From contig OZ024741.1 of NCBI GenBank assembly GCA_964016885.1, positions 330,832,001 to 330,896,000 of the forward strand: DNA of 64,000 nucleotides. The letters are read 5' to 3'. The notes below the pieces were generated by a model. It saw nothing but the letters and a program-made list of their open reading frames with translations, did not search any database and was not told the DNA's origin. This DNA comes from Eledone cirrhosa (lineage: Eukaryota). Numbering within the stretch: position 1 is the first letter of the stretch; every line of letters begins with the position of its first letter. Both the position numbers and the translations under genes were made by a program. Shown one piece after another: positions 1 through 39,275 of the stretch.

Positions 1-979
1 ATATACATATATACACATATGCATACAGGTACACATACATATATGCACGCATCAGTTTAGCCTACGTTTATTATAACGCCGGCCACTTTGTTCGTTTGTT
101 TGTCAACAAAGCGAACAGCCTGAATTTATGCCATACGGTGTTAAGGCAACCACGTCACCTTTTTGTTCAACACTGACACAGGAACGATGTACTAGTTTCA
201 AGCTTGTTAGCTATCATCAGCACCGTTTACCCATCTGCCAGATAGTTGAACGTTCGAAAGTATATACTTTCCTTATGAAAATTAACGGCTGAGCAGCCTA
301 ATTTGCATATTGAGTGAGTTAAATCGGTCAGGCATACCGAAAACGATTAGTTGAAAAAAAAAATGAAAACGGAATTTCATTTCTCACTCTTAGTATGGCA
401 CTTACTTAAATGTAAGTATGTATGTATACGTACATACATATATGTATACAGACGTACAGTAGCATGCATATATATATACATATACATATATATATATATA
501 TATACATATATACACATATGCATACAGGTACACATACATATATGCACGCATCAGTTTAGCCTACGTTTATTATAACGCCGGCCGCTTTGTTCGTTTGTTT
601 GTCAACAAAGCGAACAGCCTGAATTTATGCCATACGGTGTTAAGGCAACCACGTCACCTTTTTGTTCAACACTGACACAGGAACGATGTACTAGTTTCAA
701 GCTTGTTAGCTATCATCAGCACCGTTTACCCATCTGCCAGATAGTTGAACGTTCGAAAGTATATACTTTCCTTATGAAAATTAACGGCTGAGCAGCCTAA
801 TTTGCATATTGAGTGAGTTAAATCGGTCAGGCATACCGAAAACGATTAGTTGAAAAAAAAAAATGAAAACGGAATTTCATTTCTCACTCTTAGTATGGCA
901 CTTACTTAAATGTAAGTATGTATGTATACGTACATACATATATGTATACAGACGTACAGTAGCATGCATATATATATAC

Positions 980-1016
<37 letters not shown>

Positions 1017-1983
1017 TACACATATGCATACAGGTACACATACATATATGCACGCATCAGTTTAGCCTACGTTTATTATAACGCCGGCCGCTTTGTTCGT
1101 TTGTTTGTCAACAAAGCGAACAGCCTGAATTTATGCCATACGGTGTTAAGGCAACCACGTCACCTTTTTGTTCAACACTGACACAGGAACGATGTACTAG
1201 TTTCAAGCTTGTTAGCTATCATCAGCACCGTTTACCCATCTGCCAGATAGTTGAACGTTCGAAAGTATATACTTTCCTTATGAAAATTAACGGCTGAGCA
1301 GCCTAATTTGCATATTGAGTGAGTTAAATCGGTCAGGCATACCGAAAACGATTAGTTGAAAAAAAAAATGAAAACGGAATTTCATTTCTCACTCTTAGTA
1401 TGGCACTTACTTAAATGTAAGTATGTATGTATACGTACATACATATATGTATACAGACGTACAGTAGCATGCATATATATATACATATACATATATATAT
1501 ATATATATACATATATATACATATGCATACAGGTACACATACATATATGCACGCATCAGTTTAGCCTACGTTTATTATAACGCCGGCCGCTTTGTTCGTT
1601 TGTTTGTCAACAAAGCGAACAGCCTGAATTTATGCCATACGGTGTTAAGGCAACCACGTCACCTTTTTGTTCAACACTGACACAGGAACGATGTACTAGT
1701 TTCAAGCTTGTTAGCTATCATCAGCACCGTTTACCCATCTGCCAGATAGTTGAACGTTCGAAAGTATATACTTTCCTTATGAAAATTAACGGCTGAGCAG
1801 CCTAATTTGCATATTGAGTGAGTTAAATCGGTCAGGCATACCGAAAACGATTAGTTGAAAAAAAAAATGAAAACGGAATTTCATTTCTCACTCTTAGTAT
1901 GGCACTTACTTAAATGTAAGTATGTATGTATACGTACATACATATATGTATACAGACGTACAGTAGCATGCATATATATATAC

Positions 1984-2020
<37 letters not shown>

Positions 2021-2489
2021 TACACATATGCATACAGGTACACATACATATATGCACGCATCAGTTTAGCCTACGTTTATTATAACGCCGGCCGCTTTGT
2101 TCGTTTGTTTGTCAACAAAGCGAACAGCCTGAATTTATGCCATACGGTGTTAAGGCAACCACGTCACCTTTTTGTTCAACACTGACACAGGAACGATGTA
2201 CTAGTTTCAAGCTTGTTAGCTATCATCAGCACCGTTTACCCATCTGCCAGATAGTTGAACGTTCGAAAGTATATACTTTCCTTATGAAAATTAACGGCTG
2301 AGCAGCCTAATTTGCATATTGAGTGAGTTAAATCGGTCAGGCATACCGAAAACGATTAGTTGAAAAAAAAAAATGAAAACGGAATTTCATTTCTCACTCT
2401 TAGTATGGCACTTACTTAAATGTAAGTATGTATGTATACATACATACATATATGTATACAGACGTACAGTAGCATGCATATATATATAC

Positions 2490-2526
<37 letters not shown>

Positions 2527-3494
2527 TACACATATGCATACAGGTACACATACATATATGCACGCATCAGTTTAGCCTACGTTTATTATAACGCCGGCCA
2601 CTTTGTTCGTTTGTTTGTCAACAAAGCGAACAGCCTGAATTTATGCCATACGGTGTTAAGGCAACCACGTCACCTTTTTGTTCAACACTGACACAGGAAC
2701 GATGTACTAGTTTCAAGCTTGTTAGCTATCATCAGCACCGTTTACCCATCTGCCAGATAGTTGAACGTTCGAAAGTATATACTTTCCTTATGAAAATTAA
2801 CGGCTGAGCAGCCTAATTTGCATATTGAGTGAGTTAAATCGGTCAGGCATACCGAAAACGATTAGTTGAAAAAAAAAATGAAAACGGAATTTCATTTCTC
2901 ACTCTTAGTATGGCACTTACTTAAATGTAAGTATGTATGTATACGTACATACATATATGTATACAGACGTACAGTAGCATGCATATATATATACATATAC
3001 ATATATATATATATATATACATATATACACATATGCATACAGGTACACATACATATATGCACGCATCAGTTTAGCCTACGTTTATTATAACGCCGGCCGC
3101 TTTGTTCGTTTGTTTGTCAACAAAGCGAACAGCCTGAATTTATGCCATACGGTGTTAAGGCAACCACGTCACCTTTTTGTTCAACACTGACACAGGAACG
3201 ATGTACTAGTTTCAAGCTTGTTAGCTATCATCAGCACCGTTTACCCATCTGCCAGATAGTTGAACGTTCGAAAGTATATACTTTCCTTATGAAAATTAAC
3301 GGCTGAGCAGCCTAATTTGCATATTGAGTGAGTTAAATCGGTCAGGCATACCGAAAACGATTAGTTGAAAAAAAAAAATGAAAACGGAATTTCATTTCTC
3401 ACTCTTAGTATGGCACTTACTTAAATGTAAGTATGTATGTATACGTACATACATATATGTATACAGACGTACAGTAGCATGCATATATATATAC

Positions 3495-3531
<37 letters not shown>

Positions 3532-3999
3532 TACACATATGCATACAGGTACACATACATATATGCACGCATCAGTTTAGCCTACGTTTATTATAACGCC
3601 GGCCGCTTTGTTCGTTTGTTTGTCAACAAAGCGAACAGCCTGAATTTATGCCATACGGTGTTAAGGCAACCACGTCACCTTTTTGTTCAACACTGACACA
3701 GGAACGATGTACTAGTTTCAAGCTTGTTAGCTATCATCAGCACCGTTTACCCATCTGCCAGATAGTTGAACGTTCGAAAGTATATACTTTCCTTATGAAA
3801 ATTAACGGCTGAGCAGCCTAATTTGCATATTGAGTGAGTTAAATCGGTCAGGCATACCGAAAACGATTAGTTGAAAAAAAAAATGAAAACGGAATTTCAT
3901 TTCTCACTCTTAGTATGGCACTTACTTAAATGTAAGTATGTATGTATACGTACATACATATATGTATACAGACGTACAGTAGCATGCATATATATATAC

Positions 4000-4038
<39 letters not shown>

Positions 4039-4508
4039 TATACATATGCATACAGGTACACATACATATATGCACGCATCAGTTTAGCCTACGTTTATTA
4101 TAACGCCGGCCGCTTTGTTCGTTTGTTTGTCAACAAAGCGAACAGCCTGAATTTATGCCATACGGTGTTAAGGCAACCACGTCACCTTTTTGTTCAACAC
4201 TGACACAGGAACGATGTACTAGTTTCAAGCTTGTTAGCTATCATCAGCACCGTTTACCCATCTGCCAGATAGTTGAACGTTCGAAAGTATATACTTTCCT
4301 TATGAAAATTAACGGCTGAGCAGCCTAATTTGCATATTGAGTGAGTTAAATCGGTCAGGCATACCGAAAACGATTAGTTGAAAAAAAAAATGAAAACGGA
4401 ATTTCATTTCTCACTCTTAGTATGGCACTTACTTAAATGTAAGTATGTATGTATACGTACATACATATATGTATACAGACGTACAGTAGCATGCATATAT
4501 ATATATAC

Positions 4509-4547
<39 letters not shown>

Positions 4548-5015
4548 TATACATATGCATACAGGTACACATACATATATGCACGCATCAGTTTAGCCTA
4601 CGTTTATTATAACGCCGGCCGCTTTGTTCGTTTGTTTGTCAACAAAGCGAACAGCCTGAATTTATGCCATACGGTGTTAAGGCAACCACGTCACCTTTTT
4701 GTTCAACACTGACACAGGAACGATGTACTAGTTTCAAGCTTGTTAGCTATCATCAGCACCGTTTACCCATCTGCCAGATAGTTGAACGTTCGAAAGTATA
4801 TACTTTCCTTATGAAAATTAACGGCTGAGCAGCCTAATTTGCATATTGAGTGAGTTAAATCGGTCAGGCATACCGAAAACGATTAGTTGAAAAAAAAAAT
4901 GAAAACGGAATTTCATTTCTCACTCTTAGTATGGCACTTACTTAAATGTAAGTATGTATGTATACGTACATACATATATGTATACAGACGTACAGTAGCA
5001 TGCATATATATATAC

Positions 5016-5054
<39 letters not shown>

Positions 5055-5523
5055 TACACATATGCATACAGGTACACATACATATATGCACGCATCAGTT
5101 TAGCCTACGTTTATTATAACGCCGGCCGCTTTGTTCGTTTGTTTGTCAACAAAGCGAACAGCCTGAATTTATGCCATACGGTGTTAAGGCAACCACGTCA
5201 CCTTTTTGTTCAACACTGACACAGGAACGATGTACTAGTTTCAAGCTTGTTAGCTATCATCAGCACCGTTTACCCATCTGCCAGATAGTTGATCGTTCGA
5301 AAGTATATACTTTCCTTATGAAAATTAACGGCTGAGCAGCCTAATTTGCATATTGAGTGAGTTAAATCGGTCAGGCATACCGAAAACGATTAGTTGAAAA
5401 AAAAAAATGAAAACGGAATTTCATTTCTCACTCTTAGTATGGCACTTACTTAAATGTAAGTATGTATGTATACGTACATACATATATGTATACAGACGTA
5501 CAGTAGCATGCATATATATATAC

Positions 5524-5562
<39 letters not shown>

Positions 5563-6030
5563 TACACATATGCATACAGGTACACATACATATATGCACG
5601 CATCAGTTTAGCCTACGTTTATTATAACGCCGGCCGCTTTGTTCGTTTGTTTGTCAACAAAGCGAACAGCCTGAATTTATGCCATACGGTGTTAAGGCAA
5701 CCACGTCACCTTTTTGTTCAACACTGACACAGGAACGATGTACTAGTTTCAAGCTTGTTAGCTATCATCAGCACCGTTTACCCATCTGCCAGATAGTTGA
5801 ACGTTCGAAAGTATATACTTTCCTTATGAAAATTAACGGCTGAGCAGCCTAATTTGCATATTGAGTGAGTTAAATCGGTCAGGCATACCGAAAACGATTA
5901 GTTGAAAAAAAAAATGAAAACGGAATTTCATTTCTCACTCTTAGTATGGCACTTACTTATATGTAAGTATGTATGTATACGTACATACATATATGTATAC
6001 AGACGTACAGTAGCATGCATATATATATAC

Positions 6031-6072
<42 letters not shown>

Positions 6073-6487
6073 GCATACAGGTACACATACATATATGCAC
6101 GCATCAGTTTAGCCTACGTTTATTATAACGCCGGCCGCTTTGTTCGTTTGTTTGTCAACAAAGCGAACAGCCTGAATTTATGCCATACGGTGTTAAGGCA
6201 ACCACGTCACCTTTTTGTTCAACACTGACACAGGAACGATGTACTAGTTTCAAGCTTGGTAGCTATCATCAGCACCGTTTACCCATCTGCCAGATAGTTG
6301 AACGTTCGAAAGTATATACTTTCCTTATGAAAATTAACGGCTGAGCAGCCTAATTTGCATATTGAGTGAGTTAAATCGGTCAGACATACCGAAAACGATT
6401 AGTTGAAAAAAAAAATGAAAACGGAATTTCATTTCTCACTCTTAGTATGGCACTTACTTAAATGTAAGTATGTATGTATACGTACAT
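1..6487 (-). repeat. Tandem array of ~499-509 bp units (~13 copies, runs off the left edge); retrozyme-like, one hammerhead per unit on the minus strand
   Basis: Marker ttgaaaaaaaaaatgaaaacgg recurs at 351, 850, 1356, 1855, 2360, 2866, 3365, 3871, 4378, 4887, 5394, 5902, 6403; units near-identical except internal (TA)n and A-run length. Confidence 0.97.
183..227 (-). ncRNA. Minimal type I hammerhead ribozyme (first of 13 copies in the left array)
   Basis: Minus strand: AACGGUG-CUGAUGA-U-AGCU(AACA)AGCU-U-GAAA-CUAG-UA-CAUCGUU; 7-bp stem I, intact core, palindromic stem III ACUAGU, GUA cleavage triplet. Confidence 0.88.
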
Positions 6488-6624
6488 TGCCTTAACACCG
6501 TATGGCATAAATTCAGGCTGTTCGCTTTGTTGACAAACAAACGAACAAAGCGGCCGGCGTTATAATAAACGTAGGCTAAACTGATGCGTGCATATATGTA
6601 TGTGTACCTGTATGCATATGTGTA

Positions 6625-6663
<39 letters not shown>

Positions 6664-7130
6664 GTATATATATATGCATGCTACTGTACGTCTGTATACA
6701 TATATGTATGTACGTATACATACATACTTACATTTAAGTAAGTGCCATACTAAGAGTGAGAAATGAAATTCAGTTTTCATTTTTTTTTCAACTAATCGTT
6801 TTCGGTATGCCTGACCGATTTAACTCACTCAATATGCAAATTAGGCTGCTCAGCCGTTAATTTTCATAAGGAAAGTATATACTTTTGAACGTTCAACTAT
6901 CTGGCAGATGGGTAAACGGTGCTGATGATAGCTAACAAGCTTGAAACTAGTACATCGTTCCTGTGTCAGTGTTGAACAAAAAGGTGACGTGGTTGCCTTA
7001 ACACCGTATGGCATAAATTCAGGCTGTTCGCTTTGTTGACAAACAAACGAACAAAGCGGCCGGCGTTATAATAAACGTAGGCTAAACTGATGCGTGCATA
7101 TATGTATGTGTACCTGTATGCATATGTGTA

Positions 7131-7173
<43 letters not shown>

Positions 7174-7748
7174 GTATATATATATGCATGCTACTGTACG
7201 TCTGTATACATATATGTATGTACGTATACATACATACTTACATTTAAGTAAGTGCCATACTAAGAGTGAGAAATGAAATTCCGTTTTCATTTTTTTTTTC
7301 AACTAATCGTTTTGGTATGCCTGACCGATTTAACTCACTCAATATGCAAATTAGGCTGCTCAGCCGTTAATTTTCATAAGGAAAGTATATACTTTCGAAC
7401 GTTCAACTATCTGGCAGATGGGTAAACGGTGCTGATGATAGCTAACAAGCTTGAAACTAGTACATCGTTCCTGTGTCAGTGTTGAACAAAAAGGTGACGT
7501 GGTTGCCTTAACACCGTATGGCATAAATTCAGGCTGTTCACTTTGTTGACAAACAAACGAACAAAGCGGCCGGCGTTATAATAAACGTAGGCTAAACTGA
7601 TGCGTGGATATATGTATGTGTACCTGTCTGCATATGTGTATATATGTATATATATATATATATATATATGTATATGTATATATATATGCATGCTACTGTA
7701 CGTCTGTATACATATATGTATGTACGTATACATACATACTTACATTTA
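6487..7748 (+). repeat. Inverted arm of the same array (~2.5 units), hammerheads at 6915-6959 and 7425-7469
   Basis: Reverse complement of the unit starts at cgtaca|ttgccttaac (6487) and runs into (TA)n at ~7748. Confidence 0.95.
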
Positions 7749-7912: not shown

Positions 7913-8323
7913 AAGTTATGTTGGTGCCACAACATCCAGGCCGAAACAAATGAGATCGTGTAGGTGTCATGACAAAAAAAACACACAGTCCACGCTGTAA
8001 TGTGGCCGTGTAGGCAACACGGTAAAAACCTCCCAGCCCCACACTGTAAATGTGGTTGGTGTTAGGAAGGGCATCCAGCTGTAGAAAACCCGCCAGACAG
8101 TCCACGCTGTAATGCGGCCGTGTAGGCAACACGGTAAAAACCTCCCAGCCCCACACTGTAAATGTGGTTGGTGTTAGGAGGGGCATCCAGCTGTAGAAAA
8201 CCGGGCCAGACAGTCCTATGCGAACAAGACAATCACTCTTGCCTCAAGTGGGAAAACCCCCGTCCAAACCCATGCAAGCGTGGAACACGAACGTTAAACG
8301 TTGATGATGATGATGATGATGAT
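7909..8323 (+). mobile_element. RTE LINE 3' UTR fragment with internal ~111-bp duplication and (GAT)n tail
   Basis: Matches 31683-31987 of the full RTE; ends cgttaaacgttgatgatgat. Confidence 0.88.
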
Positions 8324-8365
8324 AATTATATATATATATATTTATATATATATTTATATATATAT

Positions 8366-10385
8366 ATCATCATCATCATCATCACCGTTTTACGTCCGTT
8401 CTTCCACGCTAGCATGGGTTAGACGGGTTGTCCTGTTGTGGGCAGTGTCTGGTCGGCTGACCATGCCTTGCTCATACAGGAACTGATTTGGCTTGATTTC
8501 TACAGCTGGATGCCCTTCCTAACACCAACCTCATTTACAGTGAGTGCTGGGTGCTTTTTCGTGGCGCCTACACGTCCACTTTACAGTGTGGGCTGGGTGC
8601 TTTTTTGCCGTGGCACCTCCACGACCACCTTGCGGTGGGGGTTGTGGGGGCATATTGTCTATATGCTTCAGCTTGTACCCATGGGAGGTCGGGTACTCTG
8701 TATTACTGCGTGACGCCAGAGGTCACGGTCGTGTGTCATTGCCTTTGAGAGGTGTAATTGGGTAAGGTCGGCTTTTATCACCTCATCCCAGGTCATGTTG
8801 GGTCTCCCCACTCCGCGGTTTCCATCAACTTCTAGTGCTCTGCACCTTTTTATGCAGCTGTCATCCTTCATACGCATCACATGTCCATACCAGCGCAACC
8901 GCCTCTACTGCACACAGCATTTGATTCCTCTTATGCTCAGTCTCTCTCTCAATTCATTTATGCTTTGTCGTTCACGTATATTACTGTTACACATCCATCG
9001 GAGCATGCAGGCTTCGTTTCTCTCTAATCTACGTAAGTCTTCCACCTTCAGCGCCCAGGTCTCACTACCATGCAACATCGCTGTTCGGATACACGCATCA
9101 TACAGTCTGCCTTTCATTCTGAGGGAGAAGCCTTTTGCAGCTAGCAGTGGTAGTAGTTCCCTAAACTTCTTCCATCCCGTTCTTACCCTAGTTATTGTAC
9201 TTTTTGAACACCCACCTCCGCTGCTAATTCGGTCACCTAGGTAGCAGAAGCTGTCTACTGTTTCTACAGAGCCCTCCCAGAGATTGGTGGTACTTGTTTC
9301 CTGTGGCTGTTTGCTGCATGTGAATCCTACATTCTTAATTAAGCTTCTTGAGATCCCGCTACATCTCTTGTGTACCCATTGTTTGCATTTGGGGCAGAGA
9401 ATGGAGTTCCTACCTACACCTTTCCTACATACTGAGCAAGGCCATTTCCCTGAGGGGATCTGGGTTCTGTTTTCTCGTCTACTTACAAGGACCTTAGTCT
9501 TTGTCATGTTGACTTTGAGACCTTTCTTTCTAGTCCCTGCTTCCAAGTTTGGAATTTATTCTCTAGTTCTACCATAGATTCAGCTATGAGTGCGAGGTCA
9601 TCAGCATACAGGAGTTCCCATGGGCATCCAGTCTTAAACTCCTCCGTTATTGCCTACAGGACTATGATGAACAGGAGGAGGCTAAGAACAGAGCCCTGGT
9701 GGACCCCAACCTGTACGCTAAATTCCTCGCTATACTCATTGCTAATCCTAACTTTGCTGACTGCTCCCCTATACATAGCTTGTACCGCTTTCACAAGCCA
9801 TTCATCTACTCCTAGTTTTCTAAGAGCCCACCAGATTACAGCACGTGGGACTCTGTCAAAGGCTTTCTCAAGGTCGACAAATGCCAAGTAGAGTGGCTTA
9901 CTTTTAGCTAGGTACTTTTCCTGTAATTGCCTCACAAGGAAGAGGGCATCAGTGGTGCCTCTTCCTGGTACAAATCCAAATTGCATCTCGTCTATTTTCA
10001 CCCGGTCCCTAATCAGCTGTGCTATAACTCTTTCTGTTACTTTCATGACCTGGTCCATCAACTTTATACCTCTATAGTTTCCTCTATCTAGTGCATTGCC
10101 TTACCTTTGTAGCAGTTGACAATGATGCTACTGCAGCAATCTTTTGGTATGGCACCTTCTAGTATTACCTGGTTAACGATACGTGTGGTTATAGTGTGAC
10201 CTACAGACCCAGATGCCTTCAGCATCTCGGCAGCTATACCCGATGGACCGGTTGCCTTCCCCATCTTCATATCTTTGATTGCCTTACTTACTACGCTGCT
10301 GCTGACTTGTACTGCTGGTCCCTCTATAGGGTCTACTTGGGGTAGGGTCTCTTCTTCCCATGCTTTCTCCTCATTTAGTAATCTA
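8366..10385 (-). mobile_element. 5'-truncated, frameshifted RTE LINE (RT and C-terminus)
   Basis: Minus ORFs with [39 protein letters not shown]; (CAT)n tail at 8366-8383. Confidence 0.93.
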
Positions 10386-10409
10386 TCATAGAATATATAT
10401 ATATATATA

Positions 10410-10733
10410 TGAAAAGTGTAATTTTCTACACAAAACGAAGGTTATAGAGAAAATTGAGGTTGGTAATGGCACATGGAATATATAAGAGACCGAATACTTT
10501 TTTGTGAAAAAACATATAATTTTATAAGGTAAGGAAATAATAAAGGGTATAAAAAGTGACCGGTTTCGATGGGTCTGCAAAAGCCATCTTTTCAAATGTT
10601 GATTAATATTAAGAAAAATTAATAATACGAAGAGTTAAAATTTAAGATTTGAAAATTCAAGTATAAAATTCATTGTGGGATTTCATAGTAGTTTTCATCT
10701 AGGTAGCAACAAGTTGACTGCTGTGTCCCTTTC
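10410..10733 (-). mobile_element. Penelope-type terminal-repeat fragment with U3-A8 hammerhead-like motif (~10555-10600)
   Basis: Minus: UUGAAAA-GAUGG..CCAUC-GAAA-CCGG-UC; stem I decayed; flanked by (TA)n. Confidence 0.5.
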
Positions 10734-10750
10734 TATATATATATATATTT

Positions 10751-11125
10751 ATAAACGGGAAAAAATGAAACGAAATTTCATTTCCCACTCTTAGTACAGC
10801 TGTTACTTAAATATAAGTATGTACACGTACATACATATATGTATACAGACGTACAGTAGTATGTATATATATATATACATACATGCACACATATATATAT
10901 GTACGTATGGATTCACCAAACATTTATTATAATGCTCGGTGTGTTTGTAAACAAACATCCCGTATTAAGCCGTAGTGTCTAGCAACCATCGTTGCTCGTT
11001 TGCTCAACACTGACAAAGAAACGCTGTACTAGTTTCAAGCTTATTAGCTATCGTCAGCAACGTATACCTTCCTGCCAGATTGTTGAACGTATATACTTAC
11101 CTTATGCATATTAACGGCTGAGTAA
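10751..11125 (-). mobile_element. Diverged single copy of the 505-bp family, hammerhead at 11021-11063
   Basis: Homologous to the array unit; ACGUUG-CUGACGA-UAGCU(AAUA)AGCUU-GAAA-CUAG-UA-CAGCGU. Confidence 0.88.
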
Positions 11126-13023
11126 TTGCATGACTAATTGACAATGGAATCCAACGTACCCTAAAACTCAGTACCCAGGACCTTAGACACCCTAAAGTAA
11201 ATCAACTGAAACTAAAAGCTCTTCCACACACAACCCCCTCAACAATGAGGCCTTTGACACCATCCTCCAGGACCTCCCTGTGTTAAAAAAGGACCATAGA
11301 ATGAACCAAATCCTACAAACACACGATATCATAAAGAGCAAAAGACAATCTAAGTCAATGAAAAACATCCAAACAAATGCCAAAGTACTGCCAACGACAA
11401 CAACGAAACCCACAGTAAAAAAATGCGATAGACCCAACTGTGGCATATGCATCAACCTAATAGAGGGTTCGGAATTCTATTTCAAAGGAGGACAACGTTT
11501 TATAGTAAAACACAATTTCACATGCGCATCAGAAAATCTAATATATGTATTAACTTGCCCAGGTTGTCGAGAACAATACATAGGCCAGACCAAAAACAGC
11601 CTCCGCCAACGCATGACTGTCCATAGATCCCAAATTAAAATACGGGAATACAGGAAAATACCACTGAGTGAGCACATTGATACCTGTGCCGCCCAAAATC
11701 ATCCCAACTTTAGAATCTTTCTCCTCTACAAATTTAAAGATAATGCCACCCACACCCAGCGCATCAGCAAGGAATCTCACTTTATTAACAAATACGGACC
11801 CCGTCTAAACACTTCTCCCTAAGATGAACCCACAACATACACACGTCAACATACATACCTACATCAGCATACATCCTACATACATCTCTATCCACATATA
11901 AACACAATGACATACGTAAACACACATGTTCTATGGTGCAACACAAATATATACAAATTTGCATACTTTTTGATGTCTATAGATATAAACGTGCTGACAC
12001 ACACACATACATATACGCACACATGCATTGCACACTGATGGGCACATACATATTTGTACACAAGTATTCCCATACGGCAGGGCCTAATGGATTCCCCTTG
12101 CAGTACGTACAATCTGGACACTCACACACACCTTGGTGTTATGACAATGCTATATATCATTTCACACCTTTTATTATTAATGTTTTTGATGTTCTATTGA
12201 GAGAATCGTTTTTACTGAAAATATCGAATAATGTACACCATTTTTACCAGTATCACAAAAATACTGGTCCACCCACACACACACACATACACACACACAC
12301 ATATACACACGCGTACACTAACATACAAAGAGACATACACACACTTCTCCGTATAAGTCAACAGCTGAAAAATATCTTTTAACATGTTAAAATATCCCCC
12401 ACACACGTACAGACACATTCCTACTGACCGATCCTTCTACCACGAATTACTCTGCTACACACACACTTGTCTTAATAGGCACCTGAACTGTTGACTTGTC
12501 AACATGACTGCAATTCACACACACATCCCTACTGACCATTATCACAACAATGAACCTCTTTACTACTACACACACACACACACACACATATTTGTTTTAA
12601 AAGACTTATTTTTCAGTGACTTGAGACAAACCTACATTTGGAGCAAAATCAATTTTTAACATTCACATGACCTCTACCGACCAATCAAAATTGTTTTGAC
12701 CACAAGAATTTTTGCAACACGAATTGGCGCAAAACTTATTTTAATACATCTGGAGCCACTTTTTTCACATAAAACAGGTAGAATCTCCAAAACTAATCAG
12801 ATTAGAGCAAACATCACGGGCGCTCTATCTCAAAATTATTTTTGAAAAGCATTAGAAATGCGCAACCGGTAAAAACTTAAAACCAAAACTGAATACTAAC
12901 CAATACTTATTACTAATTTTTACTTATTCCTAATTAAACTATTTTTCACTGGGAACAATTTGTCAGCATTTTCTTTTCCTTTTACTAATATATCATAACT
13001 CATGTGTTACACCTCTATTCTTT

Positions 13024-13028
<5 letters not shown>
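11126..13028 (+). mobile_element. 5'-truncated Penelope-like element: GIY-YIG endonuclease, long 3' UTR, hammerhead-like motif at 12839-12874
   Basis: ORF 11280-11822 with CDRPNCGIC, NLIYVLTCPGC..YIGQT..LRQRMTVH; ends in (TA)n. Confidence 0.85.
11280..11822 (+). pseudogene. Penelope-like GIY-YIG endonuclease domain (C-terminal part of the ORF)
   Basis: LIY...YIG motif, CxxC zinc motifs, conserved R/H/E/N; no RT domain retained. Confidence 0.88.
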
Positions 13029-13070
<42 letters not shown>

Positions 13071-13384
13071 GATTGATTACGATAACATCTGCGCTCCTGA
13101 GGGTATGTAGAGCAGCAGACTGGCCCCCACCATATCTATTGAGGCAAGGCCAGCCATCCTGCATTGAAATGTTTGTAGAGTAAAATGATATTGTAAATCT
13201 TAACTGGTTATCCATTATCATTTTATTAAAATTTTGAGTTCTGCAGTTCCTGTCATAATAGTCCATAAAGGAGGTTGAAAAGTCGCCCAGCCTTTTGGAT
13301 TACCGATTGACCAAGGATACTGATTAGCATCAAGCTCCTATAATCTTTACCAGGATATATATTGATAAACTCCAATATAACCTA

Positions 13385-13425
<41 letters not shown>

Positions 13426-13431
<6 letters not shown>

Positions 13432-13868
13432 AAGACGCCTCACGCCTCTTGCCGGAATAATAGAACAACCCTAGTTATCTCCCGCTGGTTGAGAACGCGA
13501 GGAGTAAACAGACAGCCACTAGAAAGCAGACTGATCACACGCCAGAAAACAGCCTCTGTACCACGCCACAGAAAGCAGCCAAGGGAACAGCAAACAATAA
13601 GCCCCACAATACTTTTGTAATGGTAATACGTTCCTTTCACCACAACTGACCACGTCAACATTTGGTACGTTCCAATTGTAGTATAAATAAACCACCATTA
13701 TTTACAATTGTTGAACTTAACTCTCATTGTGGTTATTGTGTTGTTTGCACACACACTCATTCACTTTGTTATAATTCTCACAAACACAAAATGGTAAATA
13801 GACGAGGGATCTTCCCTCACGTCTATGTCAATGAACTATCCAACTAGGATACTTTATATTTTACCACA
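13426..13868. mobile_element. Probable solo LTR (443 bp) inserted in (TA)n
   Basis: TGTAGTAA...TTACCACA termini (TG..CA, imperfect inverted ends), internal gtataaataaa, TATA on both flanks. Confidence 0.65.
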
Positions 13869-13961
13869 TATATATATATACATATATGCACACATCATCA
13901 TCATCATTTTACATCCGCTTTTCCCTGCTTGCAAGGGTCACACATATATATATATATGTAT

Positions 13962-14768
13962 GTATAGTATATTTGGTAATATACTGTATGTTTAATTAAA
14001 AACGTTTTGAAGACCTTGCGCTATCATTTTAAAGTAGTGACTATGTCACTTACTTCTTTTTTCGGCAAAGGAAGGGAGAAAAGCTGACAGATTCTGTTTC
14101 ACACTGTTGGTGTTCCTCAGATCAACGTACTCCCCGACCTCTGCCGAAAATTATAGAGGCTGGGTTCTTATAGAATTCCAGTAATAATCAGGAACTGATT
14201 ATATAGAGCGATTGCAAGTCCAGTAAAAATTAAAAATTAGGATTGGTGCTCTGAAATAGCGATGTATACATGATAATATACCGTATGTTTAATTAAAAAC
14301 ATTGCCGAAAAAAGAAGTAAGTGACATAGTCACTACTTTAAAATGATAGCGCAAGGTCTTCAAAATGTTTTTAATTAAACATACGGTATATTATCAAATA
14401 TACTATACATACATTCATGTATACATCGCTATTTCAGAGCACCAATCTTAATTTTTTATTTTTGCTGGACCGGCAATCACTCTGTATAATCAGTTCCTGA
14501 TTATTACTGGAATTCTATAAGAATCCAGCCTCTATAATTTTCGGCAGAGGTCAGGGAGTATGTTGCTCTGAGGAACACCAACAGTGTGAAACAGAATCTG
14601 TCAGCTTCTCTCCCTTCCTTTGCCGAAAAAAGAAGTAACTGACAGTCACTACTTTAAAATGATAGTGTATGGTCTTCCAAATGTTTTTAATTAAACATAC
14701 GGTATATTACCAAATATACTATACATACATTCATGTATACATCGCTATTTCAGAGCACCAATCCTAAT
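13962..14768. mobile_element. ~318-bp retrozyme-like multimer with central inversion at ~14301
   Basis: ttgccgaaaaaagaagtaa recurs at 14302 and 14620; 13962-14301 is the reverse complement; hammerheads at 14074-14136 (-) and 14554-14614 (+). Confidence 0.88.
14554..14614 (+). ncRNA. Type I hammerhead ribozyme
   Basis: GGGAG..GCU-CUGAGGA-ACAC(CAACA)GUGU-GAAA-CAG(AAU)CUG-UC-AGC..CUCCC; stem I with internal loop, GUC site. Confidence 0.88.
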
Positions 14769-14926
14769 ATATATATATATATATAATATCGTCATCATCA
14801 TCATCATCATCATTTAACGTCCATCTTCCATGCTAGCATGGGTTAGACGGTTTTATTCCATTTGATGCGGGATGGATTGGGGGAGATAAGTGTTAGAGGA
14901 TTGCAATGTTTTTCTTTTGTTTTTAG

Positions 14927-15113
14927 AATCCTTAGAGGCTGAGGCTTTCGTTGTAGATCAACGGGGCTATCTAAATGGACCACAACATGAACAGAACAGA
15001 AAAAAGGAATCTCCTTACACCATCTGGAACATTATGTGGCTAGTTACAGCCATGGTAACTTTCTACTACACTGACTTCTACCTAGCATTACTATATGACT
15101 TGCGGATAAAACG
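14927..15113 (+). CDS. TMEM128: TMEM128 internal coding exon
   Basis: ttttag acceptor, gtgagt donor; encodes ..ESPYTIWNIMWLVTAMVTFYYTDFYLAL.. resembling TMEM128 TM1 (FWILASIVVTYYVDF); phase joins next exon. Confidence 0.85.
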
Positions 15114-16015: not shown

Positions 16016-16183
16016 ATTCTGGTTTAATTTGGGTGTTTTGCTGATTGGTGTGAACATTACCATTGGAACCTTCCTCATTCTCTGGACCAGCTGTATCCGG
16101 AAAATATCTTCTGATGAATGGGAAAGACGGTATCCAGCTGCCATTCCTACTGCTACAGCATCCTTCATTCTTGGAGCTGTATG
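16016..16183 (+). CDS. TMEM128: TMEM128 internal coding exon
   Basis: ttacag/gtaagt; FWFNLGVLLIGVNITIGTFLILW..YPAAIPTATASFILGAV matches TMEM128 YPALIPITTASFIAAGIC; 168 nt, phase 2-2. Confidence 0.92.
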
Positions 16184-20243: not shown

Positions 20244-21658
20244 TGTAGCGACGTGGTTAGTCAGTCTGGTCACTACTTCTGATCAGATCCGAGAATAGCC
20301 CTTAGAAGGACTGTTATCGCATACGGTCTGATCAGATCTGAAGATAACCCTTAAAAGAAATGTCATATACGGTAAGGATGAACAGACGAAAGCACGAGTT
20401 GAAAGGACGAGCAAGGCGAGAGTTGTAGTTTCGATCAGCTATTTATTTTCACATGAAGCGACGATACAGAGGTACAAGGCGTGTGTGAGTGACAAGCGTG
20501 GCAGAGGAGAGGAACAACGATACGCTAACTGACTCTGCCAAAGGTCGACTGGCGAAAGTGTTTGGAACCACTCTATTTATACAGAAATAATCATTTGATG
20601 TTTAGCCGCTGCGTAGGCGTTTTATTCTGGTGGATTTTAAGGGTTGTTTGTTTCACGGTGAGGTAGCTAGCTAAGCAGATAGATGGAGCTGTTTATTTCA
20701 CAGATGTTATTTCCGGTGGCTGTACATTAGCCCCCTGCTAGATCTTTTGTACAACAAAAAAGCGAAATATTGTATAGTAATGAGCCAGTGGTGCATTTGT
20801 CATAACAATAGCCCAAGGTGTGTCCAGCACGTTGTGAAGTTTGGTGATCATCGCGTATAGGACAGAGTCGATGTAGAGATGATATGGCAAGATGTGTGTG
20901 TCAGGAAGAGAAAAAAGAATAAACTATAAAATGACTGACCAGATTTATGCAGGTGTGATGAATGAGCCTGTTGCAATTTGGGTTGAGCTGCCTGTGAATT
21001 GCGTGACAAAAAGTCTAACTGGGCAGTGAAGATAACCGTAAATTGTGAACTGAATGGCCGTAAGCATGCTGCCTAAAAGTAACAGTTTGCTCCAAAGCAT
21101 ATGACTTGAGCGAATGCATGTGGTAAAAAAGTAGCGAGGCATTCTAGAGCTATTGAGTGAATGTGTACGTGAATAAAAAAAAAAAAAAAAGCCAGTGTTT
21201 TGAGGATGCGATTTGTGAAATGCGTGATCAAAGAGAAAACATTTTGTAGTGTAAGAGTTAGAGGGACAAAAATATCTATTGCTCAGTGTATGAACCAAAG
21301 GTGGAACAAACTTGGTTGTGTAGTGTGCATGGAAAATAGAATATGTACACGCCTTGTATGTATATAAAAATGATGGCAATTACACAATTAATATTGCAGA
21401 AAAATAAAAATGTTTGCAAAACAAGAGAGAGAAGAAAAAAAAATGTTATACACAATGCTATACACAATGTTTGTTCTTAAATAGTGTTTGTAATAGATAA
21501 TATTCATAATAAATAATGTTCTTTGTGACATGAGCACATGGTCACTAAAAATTGCAATTGTTCAAGGAGAAAGTTCATTGTATTTGAAACTGGAAATAGT
21601 AAACACAAGGAAAATGGAAATGTTTTGCACGAAGAATGATTAAGAAACTCACTTGAGG

Positions 21659-24600
21659 TTAACGGTAATTCACATATTGTGCCAACTTGGCGGGCCAATG
21701 GACACGTCGTCCACTTCTCGTGACTGGAGATGAAACAGGTGGCTTGCTGGGACAGCAATCTGTTGGAGTTTCTGGTGGAGAGACTGTAACAGTATCCATG
21801 ATGGCTTTTTTTAATCTGTCCACGCTGACAGAATTCTGTTTACCATCTTGATCGAGAATAAAATATTTCGGATATTTTTTTAGAACACGATAAGGGCCAG
21901 AATATGGAGGTTGAAGATGAGCTGGGATGGTGTCGTTTCGAACGAAAACGTGTGTCCAATCATCAATGTCTGAAGGTACGTGTGTGGCCGTGTTCTGTTG
22001 ACGGGTGCTTGCAGGAACAAGGTGAGACATATATTGTCGAAGACGGTGTACGTATGTTCCTGGGTCTGGAACATCCTGAGGAGAGATGGGAGCAACCATC
22101 TGACCAGGTAGAACCAGGGTGATGCCGTATATAATTCTGCAGGTGTGTGTCCGAATTCCTCCTTAACAGTGGATCGAATGCCCAGAAGGATGAGTGGCAG
22201 GTATTCAAACCAGTGGGTCTTGTCTGAATATGCTTTTATTGCAGCTTTCAATTGGCGATGGAATCTTTCCACGAGACCATTAGCTTGCGGGTGATAAGCT
22301 GTCGTGCGGATGTGTTTACATCCTAACAGGCGAGTCAGTTCCCTGAAGAGGTGGGAGTCAAACTGGCGTCCTCTGTCCGTTGTTATCTTCGCTGGGGCGC
22401 CATAACGTGATACTCAATGTAAAAGCAAAGTTTTAGCGACTGTTTCCGCTGAGGTATTACTTATGGGAAAAGCCTCAGGCCAACGGGAAAATCGATCTAT
22501 GCAGGTGAGCAAGTGTATGCAATTCTGTGATGGTGGTAGAGGTCCGACGATATCGATATGCACATGATGAAATCGTGCATCAAGTAGCGCGAATGTGCCG
22601 AGTGGAGTTTTGATGTGTCTGTGGACTTTGGCCTTCTGGCAGGCAATGCAGCTCCTGGACCAGTCGTGCACGTCCTTGTTAATGTTAGTCCACACAAAAC
22701 GAGCAGAGATGAGTTTCTGTGTAGCCCAGATTCCCGGGTGAGACAAGCAGTGTAAAGCAGAAAAAACTTGTCGACGATGCATCTGTGGTTCGTACAGTCG
22801 TTCATTACCTTTAGAAAGGTCGCACCAAATTTGTCCCGGAGCAGAAGGAATGGGAACTTGCTGAAACTTGAGGGATGGCGAATCTCGGAGCTTGATAAAC
22901 TCTTCGTCAGTCTCTTGGTCAGCTGCGATCTGTTGAAGGTCGATGCCTGAATGCACATGTATTGCGTTCAGCAGGATTCGGGACAGGGCGTCGGCTGCTA
23001 CGTTGTCTGATCCCTTGATATGCCGAATATCAGTTGAATATTGGGAGACAAAATCCAGGTGTCAGAGTTCTCTCGGTGAATGTCGACCAGGTTTGGTACG
23101 GAACGCATAAACTAGTGGTTTATGGTCCGTGTAGATCACGAAATCCGATCCTTCGAGCATATGCCGAAAATGTTTAACCGAAAGGTAGGTTGCCAAGAGT
23201 TCGCGGCCAAACGTACTGTATTTGGTTTCTGCAGGTTGCAACCGCTTAGAAAACAAGGATAAGGGTTACCAAACGCCGTCGACATGTTGTTGTAAAACGC
23301 CTCCAATCCCTGTGTCTGATGCGTCCACTAGCAGCAAAAGAGGAGCGCCAGATCTGGGGAAAACGAGCATGGAAGCGTTTGCCAACATTTCCTTCAGGGG
23401 GTTAAAAGATGTTAATCCTTCCTCGTCAGAGTGATCTCTTCGTTTTTGCGAGTCCGGTTGCGAAGAAGGTCCGTGAGGAGTCTGGCTGCGTCGGCACAAT
23501 GAGGGATGAAACGCCTATAAAAATTCACCAAACCGAGGGATTCACGCAGTTTCCGAAGTGATGTAGGTGCGGGAAAATTGCGGATAGCTTCTACTTTCTC
23601 GGGAAGTGGACGAATGCCGTCTTTATCGATGATGTGCCCGAGAAAGGACAGTGAAGGAACGCCGAGAAGGCACTTGCTGGGGTTGATGATAATACCGTAC
23701 TCGGCCAAACGTTGGAAAAGAAGATCTAAGTGCTTCTCGTGTTCTTGCTCGGAAGTACTTGCTACTAGCACGTCGTCGATATACGCGTATACAAAGGGTA
23801 GATCACGTAACACGGTGTCAATAAACCGCTGAAAAGTTTGTGCAGCGTTGCGCAGACCGAACGGCATTCGCAGGAATTCAAATAAACCGAACGGTGTTGT
23901 GATTGCGGTCTTCGGAATATCTGCAGGCTCCATAGGTATCTGGTTATATGCTCGTACCAAATCTATCCTGGAAAAGATGCGTGCGCCTTGCAGAGAGGCA
24001 GAAAAGTCGTACAAGTGAGGTACAGGGTAATTATCGGGTACTGTAGAATTGTTAAGTGCACGTTAATTCCCACATGGTCGCCAATCATTCTCGGTTTTTT
24101 TAGGAACAAGGTGTAGGGTGCAGACCAGTTGCTGGAGGAAGGGCGAATGATTCCGAGGTCCAGCATGTGTTGAAACTCCTGTTTGGCGATTGTCAATCGG
24201 TCTGGAGGCAGTCTCCTTGGTTGGGCAGCTGTGGGTGGTCCTCTTGTCTCGATGTGGTGTGTGACACTATGCTTAATAGGTCCATCCTTAAATACCGGGC
24301 GAGTGATGTCTGGGTATTTCTGGAGAATGCCGTTGTAACGCGAAGGCTTTGACTGGCAAATTACAGGGCTCACTGTGGATTGCGTGGTAAATATACCTCT
24401 CACAGTGAGGTTTGTGGTAGTGTCAATAAGCCTCCGGTTCTTCATATCCACCAGAAGGTTGAAGTGGTGGAGAAAATCGGCTCCTAAGATAGGGGTCGGC
24501 AGGTCTGCCACGACGAACACCCATTGAAAACGACGCCTCAGGCCTAAATTGAGGGTCAGTGATTTCTCCCCGAAAGTCGGAATTGACGATTGGTTCACTG

Positions 24601-24700
24601 CCTGCAGAAAGGACGGTGCTGGATGTCTTTACCCGAGATTAGTGAAACAGGAATAACACTAACCTGGGCTCCTGTATCCACGAGGTAACGGATGCCTGTC
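21659..24700 (-). pseudogene. Gypsy pol (protease, RT, RNase H, integrase) in fragments
   Basis: [74 protein letters not shown]. Confidence 0.95.
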
Positions 24701-25619
24701 GCTTGGTCGTTGATAAAAAAAATAGACGACTTTTCTTTTCAGTACCAGGGGTGAACGTCGTCGCTAGGCCCTGGGTGGTATTCTGCAAAGAGCATGGGGC
24801 CCTACACTTAGATGCCTGAGTGCCGAATTCTTCGTGATACCAGCAGAGGTTGCCAGACACACGATTTTGACTGGGACTTCTGGATCTTCGACGGTGAAAG
24901 GGCCTGGATCGACTGTTGCTGCGCCGCCGGTGTGTTTGAAAGGTCAGGTTCTCTAATTGGTTTGAGAGGGCTTTAATTTGACCAGCCTGCTCTCTGATCA
25001 TAGCCCGCAGCTCTGAAATCTCGGAGGTGGAGTCCGAGGACGTTATGTAAGGGTTCATCCGATGATCTACCTGTGCCACTGAGGCAAAAGGGTTTGACAC
25101 CTCAGCGATCTTATCTGCGACACTCGCCGATTCTTCCGGGGTTGCTGACTCGTTAGTCGACGCCAGAATGCCCTGCATCGATAAGGGCAAGCGCTGTATA
25201 AACAGCCGTTTCAGCACATCTTCTGAAAGCAGCTGGTCTTGCATCAGCTGTCTCATCTTTCGCAATAGTTGGGTCGGTTTTCTGTCCCCCAATTCTGCTG
25301 CAGACACGAGTTGGTTGAGTCGTCTCTGCTGTGACGCGGTCGTTCGCTTGATCAATTCCTTGCGGAATGATTCATATGACACCGTGCCCGGCGGTGCCAT
25401 GACGAGGTCCCTCACCTCAGCCAAGACTTCTACCGGGACAGACCCAATGATGTAGGTGAGCTTTGCAGAATCGCTCTTAATTCTGTTAGCGGCGAATTGT
25501 GCTTCTATGTGAGCGAACCACAGAGTCGGGTCGTTGGACCAAAAAACGGGAACTTTCAATGTTAAAGCAGCTTGTGTGGTTGGTATCTCGGCCTCTTTCG
25601 TTGTTTGTGACATGTCCAT
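24639..25619 (-). CDS. Gypsy gag-like ORF
   Basis: PVFWSNDPTLWFAHIEAQF, LGDRKPTQLL, CWYHEEFG..CRAPC knuckle. Confidence 0.9.
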   Translation of the reverse strand: MDMSQTTKEAEIPTTQAALTLKVPVFWSNDPTLWFAHIEAQFAANRIKSDSAKLTYIIGSVPVEVLAEVRDLVMAPPGTVSYESFRKELIKRTTASQQRRLNQLVSAAELGDRKPTQLLRKMRQLMQDQLLSEDVLKRLFIQRLPLSMQGILASTNESATPEESASVADKIAEVSNPFASVAQVDHRMNPYITSSDSTSEISELRAMIREQAGQIKALSNQLENLTFQTHRRRSNSRSRPFHRRRSRSPSQNRVSGNLCWYHEEFGTQASKCRAPCSLQNTTQGLATTFTPGTEKKSRLFFLSTTKRQASVTSWIQEPRLVLFLFH

Positions 25620-25645
25620 GTTGGTATCTTCTTAGGCTGCTGTCT

Positions 25646-25677
25646 GGTTGCGTGTTCGAATCACGTCGGGATCACCA
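25646..25677 (-). promoter_or_regulatory. Primer binding site complementary to tRNA-Trp
   Basis: Plus strand ggttgcgtgttcgaatcacgtcgggatcacca matches the 3' 32 nt of metazoan tRNA-Trp+CCA as recalled (1 mismatch). Confidence 0.85.
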
Positions 25678-25996
25678 ATTGTAGCGAGGTGGTTAGTCAG
25701 TCTGGTCACTACTTCTGATCAGATCCGAGAATAGCCCTTAGAAGGACTGTTATCGCATACGGTCTGATCAGATCTGAAGATATCCCTTAAAAGAACTGTT
25801 GTCACATACGGTAAGGATGAACAGATGAAAGCACAAGTTGAAAGGACGAGCAAGGCGAGAGATGTAGTTGCAATCAGCTATTTATTTTCACATGAAGCGG
25901 CGATACAGAGGTACAAGGCGTGCGTGAGTTACAAGCGTGGCAGAGGAGAGGAAAAACGATACGCGACTTGACTCTGCCAAAGGTCGACTGGCGAAA

Positions 25997-27369
<1,373 letters not shown>

Positions 27370-28240: not shown

Positions 28241-28639
28241 TTAATACGTGGACCAATCATAAGCCAGAGCCCCCCCCCCCACGCATCACCATTATTATTA
28301 TTACGCGGACCAAATCATAAGCCAGAGGCCTATACTATCGCTTGCACGGTTGCCTTCGATATATGATGGATGGATGGATGGACGGACGGACTGCGGAATG
28401 CTGGAGAGTGGAAGGGAGAGAAAAATCTGGACGCTCAGAGCGAAAATGCCAAAGTTAAAGTCAAATTCACCTCGTGGACGAGAATGCGAGCACTCCTCTT
28501 TGTTTCGTCCGCGGATGGCTAACATAACCCTATCTCCTCCCGCCCCCACCACCCCCACCCTCCAAACGCAACCCAAAACTTCAGAGTTGGTACCATAAAT
28601 GTAGGCACCCTAAAGGGTCGCGCTAACGAGGTTGTAGAA

Positions 28640-31627: not shown

Positions 31628-32001
31628 CAAACTACACCCCGTCCCGCCACCACCCCCACCCCATCCACACCACCCCGTTCTATGTAAAGTTATGTTGGTG
31701 CCGCGCCATCCAGGCCGAAACAAATGAGATCGTGTAGGTGTCACGACAAAAAAACACACAGTCCACGCTGTAATGTGGCCGTGTAGGCAACACGGTAAAA
31801 ACCTCCCAGACCCACACTGTAAATGTGGTTGGTGTTAGGAAGGGCATCCAACTGTAGAAAACCTGCCAGACAGTCCTATGCGAGCAAGACAATCACTCTT
31901 GCCTCAAGTGGGACTACCCCCGTCCAAACCCATGCAAGCGTGGAACACGGACGTTAAACGTTGATGATGATGATGATGATGATGATATACATATATATAT
32001 G

Positions 32002-32055
<54 letters not shown>

Positions 32056-33828: not shown

Positions 33829-33964
33829 TCATATTTATATATATACTCTTCTCACTCTCACACAAGAAAAACAAAAAAACAAAAATAAATCAAAAATAAA
33901 TTTAAAAAAAAAATATATATATATTGAAATACTTAACTAAAACACACACACACTCAAAACTAGA

Positions 33965-35113
33965 ATGGCTAACCAGCAAAAATCCAAACAGAACTGGTCT
34001 GATAATGAAATCGACATTCTAATAAACACATGGCATTGCCTTTCCCAAACAGAAGACATACATGCTTCATCTCTGAACGACATTGCTAAACGTACAGTTC
34101 AATTTTTGAAAACTCGATCTGAACAACAGATTCAAAATAAATTAAAGCAAATCGAAATTGCTTTTAAATTAATCAATAAACATTTGGATAAACTACGGTG
34201 TGTTTTCTCTTCGAATGCTGTCCAGCAGCAGCAACAACAACAACAGCAGCTACAACAGCAACAACAACAACAGCTACAACAACAACATCAACAACAGCAA
34301 CAACAACAACAACAACGACAACAACAGTGTGAACCACTCCTTGATTCATCAACAATGGCCGATCTACTAAATGAAACTATTGACCCCCCAGTAGCCTCTG
34401 TCTCACAGCATGAAACGCCACATCCTTTCTCTGGCCCAGCAGTCCAATCATCACCACTGCCAACATCTCTGCCTACTACTACTACTACAACATTTTTGTC
34501 TACTGCTACGTCAAGGAATTTATCTTCTAATACCAGAACAAGAACTCTCCTTCCCACAGTCCACAAAGGTCGTCAAATCCTACCCAAACCATCATCTACA
34601 CCTCTCACAACACACACACCCACATACCCACCCACTCGAAACCCCATCATTTGCCGCTACTCTCTACGCTATAGAATATGTACGGATAGTGGCTGCAAAT
34701 TCACCCATTTACCTAGGACAAAACGATCTATCCCCACAAACAGCCACCACCATAATGCATACTCTAATTTAACACCAACACAACCACCAATAACTCAAAC
34801 AAGGAATCCACAAATCTGCCGTTTTTCCCTGCGAGACAGATTGTGTTTAGACCGGGATTGTCCCTTTACCCATCTCCCGGGGACCCGTCGGACAAATGAA
34901 AATAAAATTAAAAATAAAAGCAAAAACAAAAACCATAACCTACATAAAAATAACCACTACCACAGTCACCAACAGTCTTCTAAACAGGAAACTTCTTCCC
35001 CTTTTTTAGCCATAATGAATCTGGCAAAAGAACTGGAAAAAAACATTCGAGCTATCACCCAGCACCACCCTCCACTATCACCCCACTGCAGAAACTCCCA
35101 TTGCTGCCATTAA
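33965..35113 (+). CDS. LINE ORF1: Myb/SANT-like N-terminus, polyQ, two CCCH zinc fingers
   Basis: NWSDNEIDILINTW..RSEQQIQNKLKQI; CRYSLRYRICTDSGCKFTH and CRFSLRDRLCLDRDCPFTH. Confidence 0.8.
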   Translation: MANQQKSKQNWSDNEIDILINTWHCLSQTEDIHASSLNDIAKRTVQFLKTRSEQQIQNKLKQIEIAFKLINKHLDKLRCVFSSNAVQQQQQQQQQLQQQQQQQLQQQHQQQQQQQQQRQQQCEPLLDSSTMADLLNETIDPPVASVSQHETPHPFSGPAVQSSPLPTSLPTTTTTTFLSTATSRNLSSNTRTRTLLPTVHKGRQILPKPSSTPLTTHTPTYPPTRNPIICRYSLRYRICTDSGCKFTHLPRTKRSIPTNSHHHNAYSNLTPTQPPITQTRNPQICRFSLRDRLCLDRDCPFTHLPGTRRTNENKIKNKSKNKNHNLHKNNHYHSHQQSSKQETSSPFLAIMNLAKELEKNIRAITQHHPPLSPHCRNSHCCH

Positions 35114-38100: not shown

Positions 38101-38120
38101 CCATGGTGCCCAAATCCTGA
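35101..38120 (+). pseudogene. CR1-type ORF2 (APE 35101-36171, RT 36324-38120) broken by small indels in 36150-36325
   Basis: LTETHL, YRPP, GDFN, SDH; NYRPISLT, DFSKAFD, GVPQGTVLGP, FADD. Confidence 0.92.

Positions 38121-38744: not shown

Positions 38745-38780
<36 letters not shown>

Positions 38781-39211: not shown

Positions 39212-39275
<64 letters not shown>

Follow-up and report, generated by a model that had tools for sequence, protein, structure and literature searches.

A retrozyme-family segment joined head-to-head to an unrelated Penelope-type element segment in the Eledone cirrhosa genome

The stretch of DNA considered here (the window, 64,000 nt of contig OZ024741.1) is AT-rich animal DNA dense in retroelements, with LINEs (RTE and others), an LTR element, and several GIY-YIG fragments. 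At one site, a piece of a retrozyme family is fused head-to-head to a piece of an unrelated Penelope-type element. Reading from left to right, the locus begins with a (TA)n tract, the presumed target (10734-10748, located by tract scan and sequence). The left arm (10751-11131, minus strand, defined by alignment) is a 381-nt variant of a 505-bp hammerhead repeat, and carries a type I hammerhead at 11021-11063 (minus strand, found with our own descriptor) with a predicted cut after 11027. The head-to-head junction, 11131/11134, lies within 11123-11140 and is set by the ends of homology on both sides. The right arm, on the plus strand, consists of the 5'-truncated remnant of a Neptune-type ORF (11134-11822, identified by Pfam and relatives) and the AC-rich 3' region of that element (11823-13026, assigned by strand skew and by homology to 51769-51946), which includes the element's own minimal U3-A8 hammerhead (12839-12874, plus strand, found with a widened descriptor). 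A (TA)20 tract at 13027-13067 (tract scan) forms the right outer border. A first-pass annotation had described a minus-sense segment of the 505-bp family joined to a plus-sense truncated Penelope ORF, and the alignment, the strand of the hammerhead, and the Pfam GIY-YIG match confirm this.

The surroundings contain many other mobile elements. RTE LINEs with a PHD finger lie at 8094-10391, 28523-32026, 40305-41325, and 50022-50678; the 28.5-kb copy has an open frame of 1034 codons, and several 5'-truncated RTE copies end at TA tracts. A near-complete LINE (33941-38218) has Myb-like, endonuclease, and reverse transcriptase (RT) segments in separate frames, and an LTR element (20244-25999) has 94%-identical LTRs and a fragmented pol. 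A 2-kb element at 56950-58976, with identical 366-bp direct repeats and little coding capacity, interrupts an arm of the 56-63 kb element. The window also contains at least five other hammerhead families that are non-coding (13958-14766, 26792-27368, 45004-46062, 50717-51550, 53069-53612, and 53748-54980), nearly all of them head-to-head in (TA)n, which is unusually rich for one window. By eye, 16020-16180 could be a host exon: its coding sequence is hydrophobic, with AG ahead of it and GT behind.

The coding part of the right arm contains a GIY-YIG domain (Pfam PF01541, E 6e-7). Homology to full-length relatives with RT and endonuclease begins at 11134 (LIDNG) and ends at the stop at 11822; there is one frameshift, near 11229-11235, and no in-frame stop in 228 codons. 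The ORF comprises the end of the RT thumb region, a CX4CxxC linker, and, at the C-terminus, a GIY-YIG endonuclease with CCHH, and its alignment covers residues 526-752 in a relative of 758 aa as well as the C-termini of RT-bearing relatives. Searches returned eight longer relatives and six of similar length, at 38-64% identity, and in the alignment with relatives C77-X4-C82xxC85, C121, C124, H143, and H160 are invariant. Compared by eye, this cysteine/histidine spacing fits the Neptune and Naiad rows, but not the Nematis rows, of the published alignment (Craig et al., Fig. S2, PMC8557442). Based on these sequence features (linker, CCHH, and C-terminal endonuclease), the right arm is classified as Neptune-type, the RT core having been truncated away in this copy. 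Two other clades were considered and rejected. In Naiad elements the endonuclease is N-terminal and the RT comes after it, whereas here thumb-region homology precedes it and a stop comes next; the Hydra clade does not fit an ORF that lacks the CxCX5C linker and has CCHH. Like Neptune-clade Penelope-like elements (PLEs), the right arm combines a C-terminal GIY-YIG domain with CCHH, a CX2-5CxxC linker with a long spacer, a microsatellite target, and a hammerhead near the 3' end. A search of bacterial and archaeal genomes for relatives with DNA context found none.

The strand skew of C over G is continuous from the ORF to about 13000, and the element ends with its own ribozyme motif. This hammerhead has a U3-A8 core (UUGAAAA), a 4-bp stem II, a palindromic stem III (ACCGGU), and a cut site after 12871. 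Its core distinguishes it from Neptune-clade PLEs; the U3-A8 covariation is reported from Schistosoma elements (PMC4209133). The second half of the core reads GCAA in place of GAAA; the motif is therefore missed by a descriptor that requires GAAA, and the ribozyme is probably inactive. The widened descriptor matched 0 of 100 shuffled right arms. In a flank search, 12805-13024 proved homologous to a solo copy at 51769-51946 (0 of 500 shuffles were as good), although the distal block of this homology is not significant by itself (88/500 shuffles). That solo relative of the Neptune 3' end (51767-51975, plus strand) carries an intact U3-A8 hammerhead (core 51805), and the stems II of the two copies differ by one compensatory pair (U-A versus G-C). 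Plain minimum free energy (MFE) folding did not separate the two U3-A8 motifs from shuffles. A third U3-A8 hammerhead element, with stem III ACCGGU and a 1-bp stem I, lies at 10411-10733 (minus strand). The distance from the hammerhead cut to the TA tract is 155 nt in the right arm, 141 nt in the 51.8-kb relative, and 148 nt in the 10411-10733 element; overall, the right arm is ~27 nt shorter than the 51.8-kb relative. The 10411-10733 element was considered as Neptune's original inverted arm and rejected, the two having only the hammerhead core in common (alignment equalled in 108/300 shuffles).

The left arm belongs to a family that forms a tandem array at 1-7747. This array has 15 type I hammerheads, one per unit (unit lengths 499-509): 13 in minus sense, an inversion at 6487/6488, and then two in plus sense, ending in (TA)n. 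The hammerheads were identified by a custom descriptor together with the known minimal architecture. The unit has a GC content of 35% and a longest sense ATG-ORF of 51-54 aa, so that by sequence the family fits the description of a non-LTR retrozyme, that is, tandem, non-coding units with type I hammerheads and GC below 45%. Metazoan non-LTR retrozymes likewise have low-GC, non-coding tandem units with one type I hammerhead each (PMC7229834; 10.64898/2026.07.22.740005), and the 505-nt unit, although longer than the 170-400 nt given by Cervera and De la Pena 2020 (PMC7229834), is within the 51-972 nt of Li et al. 2026. The predicted circular fold of the unit has a z of -12, a value probably inflated by TA palindromes. 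A second insertion of the family, with both arms from that family head-to-head, is found at 38631-39966 (junction 39573/39574). Within it, one 505 unit has its internal TA tract split by an unrelated 62-nt segment (39274-39335), which makes the unit's own microsatellite an insertion target.

Against all copies of the 505 family, 10760-11122 aligns at 69-76% with gaps, and the homology extends to 11131. Over the ungapped core the array units are 83-84% identical to the left arm, and the 38.6-40.0 kb copies 84-87%; the latter themselves are 94-95% identical to the array. The left arm has several short deletions and corresponds to one 505 unit less ~41 nt. On this basis it is assigned to a distinct 505 subfamily, 13-16% diverged, rather than to a copy of an array unit. 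Simulated decay gave a probability of no stops in the 228 codons of the right arm of 0.046 at 13% divergence and 0.024 at 16%; neutral decay of 13-16% is thus unlikely, and the divergence of the left arm is more than the age of the right one can account for. Both arms look fairly young, and the divergence of the left arm, whose modelled hammerhead pairs are all intact, probably predates the insertion; on our reading that arm is no decayed array unit but comes, as a young copy, from a separate subfamily.

The hammerhead of the left arm (core at 11057, minus strand) has the C3-G8 core CUGACGA followed by GAAA, with a 6-bp stem I, a 4-bp stem II closed by U.U, and the palindromic stem III ACUAGU; its strand places the RNA sense on the minus strand. 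None of the 17 modelled pairs is lost in this copy, and across the four distinct sequences there are two double-sided changes. Neither this covariation (equalled in 55/500 shuffles) nor a lower substitution rate within the hammerhead (Fisher p 0.09 and 0.52) is significant, and plain MFE folding of seven hammerhead segments left six that were not separable from shuffles. Rfam at gathering level gave no match in the whole window; at 10400-15000 it gave microsatellite-driven miRNA-type matches only and no hammerhead.

The two arms are unrelated. There is no inverted match between them, and at the level of families the earlier suggestion of two different RNAs is thus borne out. Among six alignments of the 505 unit with the right arm, four fall within the shuffle range and one is borderline (12/200); the sixth beats 200/200 shuffles but consists of CA/TA microsatellite alone. 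One could nevertheless suppose that the 505-type segment is the Neptune family's own distal pseudo-LTR (pLTR), in other words that the locus is an ordinary inverted pLTR whose direct copy is missing. PLEs typically have an inverted copy that is 5'-truncated (PMC8557442), and in Xenopus 24 of 57 retrozyme families are described as matching known TEs, which are PLEs in 21 of the 22 (10.64898/2026.07.22.740005). Moreover, the GAAA-requiring scan gave no hammerhead for the right arm, compared with 3/4 other PLE 3' regions that have one. However, the right arm comes with a U3-A8 hammerhead of its own and with a terminus in common with the 51.8-kb copy, and the left arm has no homology to the ORF's start. 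This explanation is largely refuted and is held to be very improbable. Whether the 505 unit forms part of the Penelope element, a point raised by the first-pass annotation, is accordingly answered in the negative within the window: the element's terminus is its own and bears a different hammerhead, and the 505-type left arm is, from these comparisons, not a terminal repeat of the Neptune-type element.

Both arms point outward, as had been proposed, and each ends at its own family's canonical 3' end; judged by sequence, each outer end is the terminus of that arm's family, with hammerheads of different types. It is this family-specificity that makes the outer ends meaningful. That both of them meet (TA)n (10734-10748 and 13027-13067), also noted earlier, is correct but means little alone, given how common TA tracts are in the window (outside the array there are 55 merged tracts at a median spacing of 375 nt). 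Counting unit positions from cut site to cut site, the outer end of the left arm is at position 346 and that of the left arm at 38.6 kb is at 343, while two right arms of the 505 family end at 284 and 287. Thus, the family has two fixed ends ~60 nt apart (about 285 and 345). This arrangement recalls PLEs with their two start sites and their tail, whose published length is 30-40 nt. Since the left arm spans the hammerhead cut site, its template would have been uncleaved, circular, or multimeric. Two of four 505-family arms lack 22 and 41 nt of a full unit; a circular template may lie behind this, though the cases are too few to count.

At the junction, homology to the 505 family stops at 11131 and homology to the ORF starts at 11134, leaving 2 nt between them and no TA. 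The absence of a microsatellite agrees with the earlier description; the position given there (~11125) is corrected here. A 6-nt direct repeat, TAATTG, is present at 11123 and 11135. The codons just 5' of 11134 differ from the conserved YP of the relatives, so that any microhomology was short. Junctions between arms of the same family have an overlap of 1 nt (twice) or 7 nt, or a 9-nt repeat (42.45 kb), and same-family inversion junctions likewise lack TA. Short repeats of 4-7 nt occur at 9/9 junctions examined, and the TAATTG 6-mer is therefore weak evidence. By contrast, the 5/5 solo 5' ends that were inspected abut TA or CA repeats, unlike this junction.

Inverted insertions of PLEs are known (Craig et al. 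2021, PMC8557442; Arkhipova et al. 2013, PMC3846280; for polarity also PMC4209133), and the present locus resembles those of EN+ PLEs in its 5'-truncated copy, the inverted arm at the 5' end, the outward 3' ends, the (TA)n target, and the optional tail at one end. In those insertions as described, however, the inverted arm derives from the same element, while here it comes from an unrelated hammerhead family. Head-to-head polarity is therefore ordinary for PLEs, and the mixed pairing alone is unusual. Within the window, 13 chosen intervals comprise ten structures with same-family inverted arms, two solo PLE fragments, and this one mixed locus; in the ten others the arms are mostly 88-100% identical. 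Four (TA)n-flanked Penelope-like fragments are of Hydra type (41860-44928, 47457-49323, 55194-56285, and 56447-63329), two with same-family inverted arms and two solo. Three of the four have a hammerhead 1.0-1.9 kb past the stop; the CxCX5C linker is kept in two, a third has a change at one Cys of it, and the fourth has lost the linker by truncation.

For the observed arrangement (two unrelated families, each with a family-specific outer end, and a join without TA), the preferred explanation is a single Penelope-type integration at a (TA)n tract using two different RNAs, which is given an even chance of being correct; the weights on competing explanations are judgements rather than computed values. 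A GIY-YIG endonuclease would cut the TA tract, and from each DNA end an RNA would be reverse-transcribed, with priming at its usual internal start site: the 505-subfamily retrozyme RNA from one end and the Neptune RNA from the other. Both cDNAs would stop early, and the free ends would be fused by end-joining repair, leaving 3' ends outward and a TA-free head-to-head junction. The single event, the two-ended priming by a dimer, and the end-joining repair are the parts that we infer. The anole Poseidon protein is reported to cut and extend both strands, starting internally and without homology, and a dimer is predicted for it (Frangieh et al. 2024, PMC11167929). A left arm with the long end and a shorter right arm fit a tail at one end only (PMC8557442), and TAATTG at the join, which parallels the 9-nt repeat at the same-family 42.45-kb junction, argues weakly for one event. 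On the other side, this is one case, and a target-site duplication is unreadable in (TA)n. The other inverted structures, with arms of one family, suggest that a single source is the rule, which speaks against the use of two RNAs. In addition, a rotifer study saw neither of its two PLE types mobilise the other and prefers self-priming as the source of inversions (PMC3846280).

The same geometry could arise from two independent insertions, into one TA tract or neighbouring ones, brought together by a later deletion or by the target-site deletion of the second insertion, and this history is considered a real possibility that nonetheless falls clearly short of even. Any deletion running from a left arm to the next right arm between outward-facing insertions yields this geometry, with canonical outer ends on both arms equally expected. 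The density of insertions, including the independent hammerhead element at 10411-10733, gives sequential insertion a real prior: there are the 55 TA tracts, and many independent hammerhead/PLE insertions lie side by side. At 53.7-55.0 kb, the right arm of a head-to-head hammerhead element has taken up a LINE 3' fragment (53987-54790), which lies just upstream of the ribozyme core with a CATTAT-like repeat on either side; this nesting shows that sequential events can give TA-free junctions here. Microhomology-mediated deletions are also known in Penelope copies (PMC3846280). Simple nesting, however, is excluded, there being no 505 remainder past 13067. The solo 5' ends inspected all keep their TA or CA tract, no age gap between the arms is demonstrable, and no other deletion-type fusion of two families was noticed among the 13 intervals tested.

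A third explanation, considered improbable, is one chimeric RNA from a source locus with the 505 subfamily and Neptune in tandem, primed at both canonical sites in a manner like twin priming. PLE transcripts are reported to be multimeric with an internal start (PMC11167929), a single RNA would account for the near-identical arms of same-family structures, and the capture of unrelated DNA between pLTRs is on record (PMC3846280). However, the window contains no tandem 505-Neptune locus, and the left arm is 41 nt short of a full unit and has no Neptune-sense sequence attached. L1 elements offer partial parallels. In L1 twin priming, two priming events on one RNA are joined internally; U6-L1 template-switch chimeras bring two RNAs into one insertion, but on the same strand. 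The L1 endonuclease is of a class other than that of the GIY-YIG element.

The first-pass annotation had also nominated this element family as the autonomous partner of the 505 array. The fusion itself stands, but regular partnership does not follow from one case, with a diverged subfamily and no specific sequence link; that the Neptune family is the regular autonomous partner is rather doubtful. Even if it was one event, co-insertion would place both RNAs at one break and no more. No specific similarity was found between the 505 unit and the Neptune arm or nine other PLE/hammerhead regions of the window. A T-rich 3' motif common to the 505 and Neptune ends was rejected as low-complexity chance: its best scores were 10/400 and 34/400 among 36 comparisons, and an unrelated family scored 0/400 in one comparison that was not repeated in its sister copy. 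The four Hydra-type fragments are alternative PLEs beside Neptune, and the Hydra and Naiad clades are also reported to prefer (TA)n (PMC8557442). In File S2 of Craig et al. (PMC8557442), a U.U closure of stem II was counted by eye in 14/25 Hydra-clade families, although it is absent from the window's three Hydra-like hammerheads. The U.U closure of the 505 hammerhead, with the count covering Hydra-clade families alone, is no more than a hint against a Neptune partner. For short 505 motifs, no meaningful match turned up in the portion of the Craig supplement compared (PMC8557442).

The mobilisation of retrozymes by PLEs has been proposed previously on the basis of co-occurrence, a shared ribozyme type, and pLTR homology (PMC7229834; 10.64898/2026.07.22.740005). 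In the preprint of Li et al. 2026 (10.64898/2026.07.22.740005) the link between retrozymes and PLEs is made by pLTR homology, which is absent here, and no mention of a head-to-head retrozyme-PLE fusion was found in its text as available. More broadly, no report of a mixed retrozyme-PLE head-to-head insertion was found in literature judged mostly from titles and listings, with few subscription papers. The new feature of this locus is the mixed-family arms in an otherwise known type of PLE inverted insertion, and it is possibly informative on mechanism. The origin of these inverted structures has been described as unresolved (PMC8557442), self-priming on a single template being one idea (PMC3846280). 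A junction between two unrelated RNAs cannot come from fold-back, and recurrent cases would consequently favour two-ended priming. The locus may even be the fossil of a Neptune protein complex that held its own RNA and a retrozyme RNA together, which seems rather unlikely. More speculatively, pairing between palindromic stems III could hold two RNAs together; the modelled homoduplexes have energies of -6.8 and -10.3 kcal/mol and the mixed duplex only -2.2, so that mixed events would be rare.

A single locus with a deletion alternative is a lead, not a result. Mixed junctions would provide a more direct genomic test of PLE-driven retrozyme movement. If the locus were indeed the fossil of such a Neptune complex, head-to-head PLE insertions would be made from two separately primed RNAs and not by fold-back on one, and mixed junctions could be mined genome-wide to pair each retrozyme with its mobiliser even where there is no pLTR homology left.
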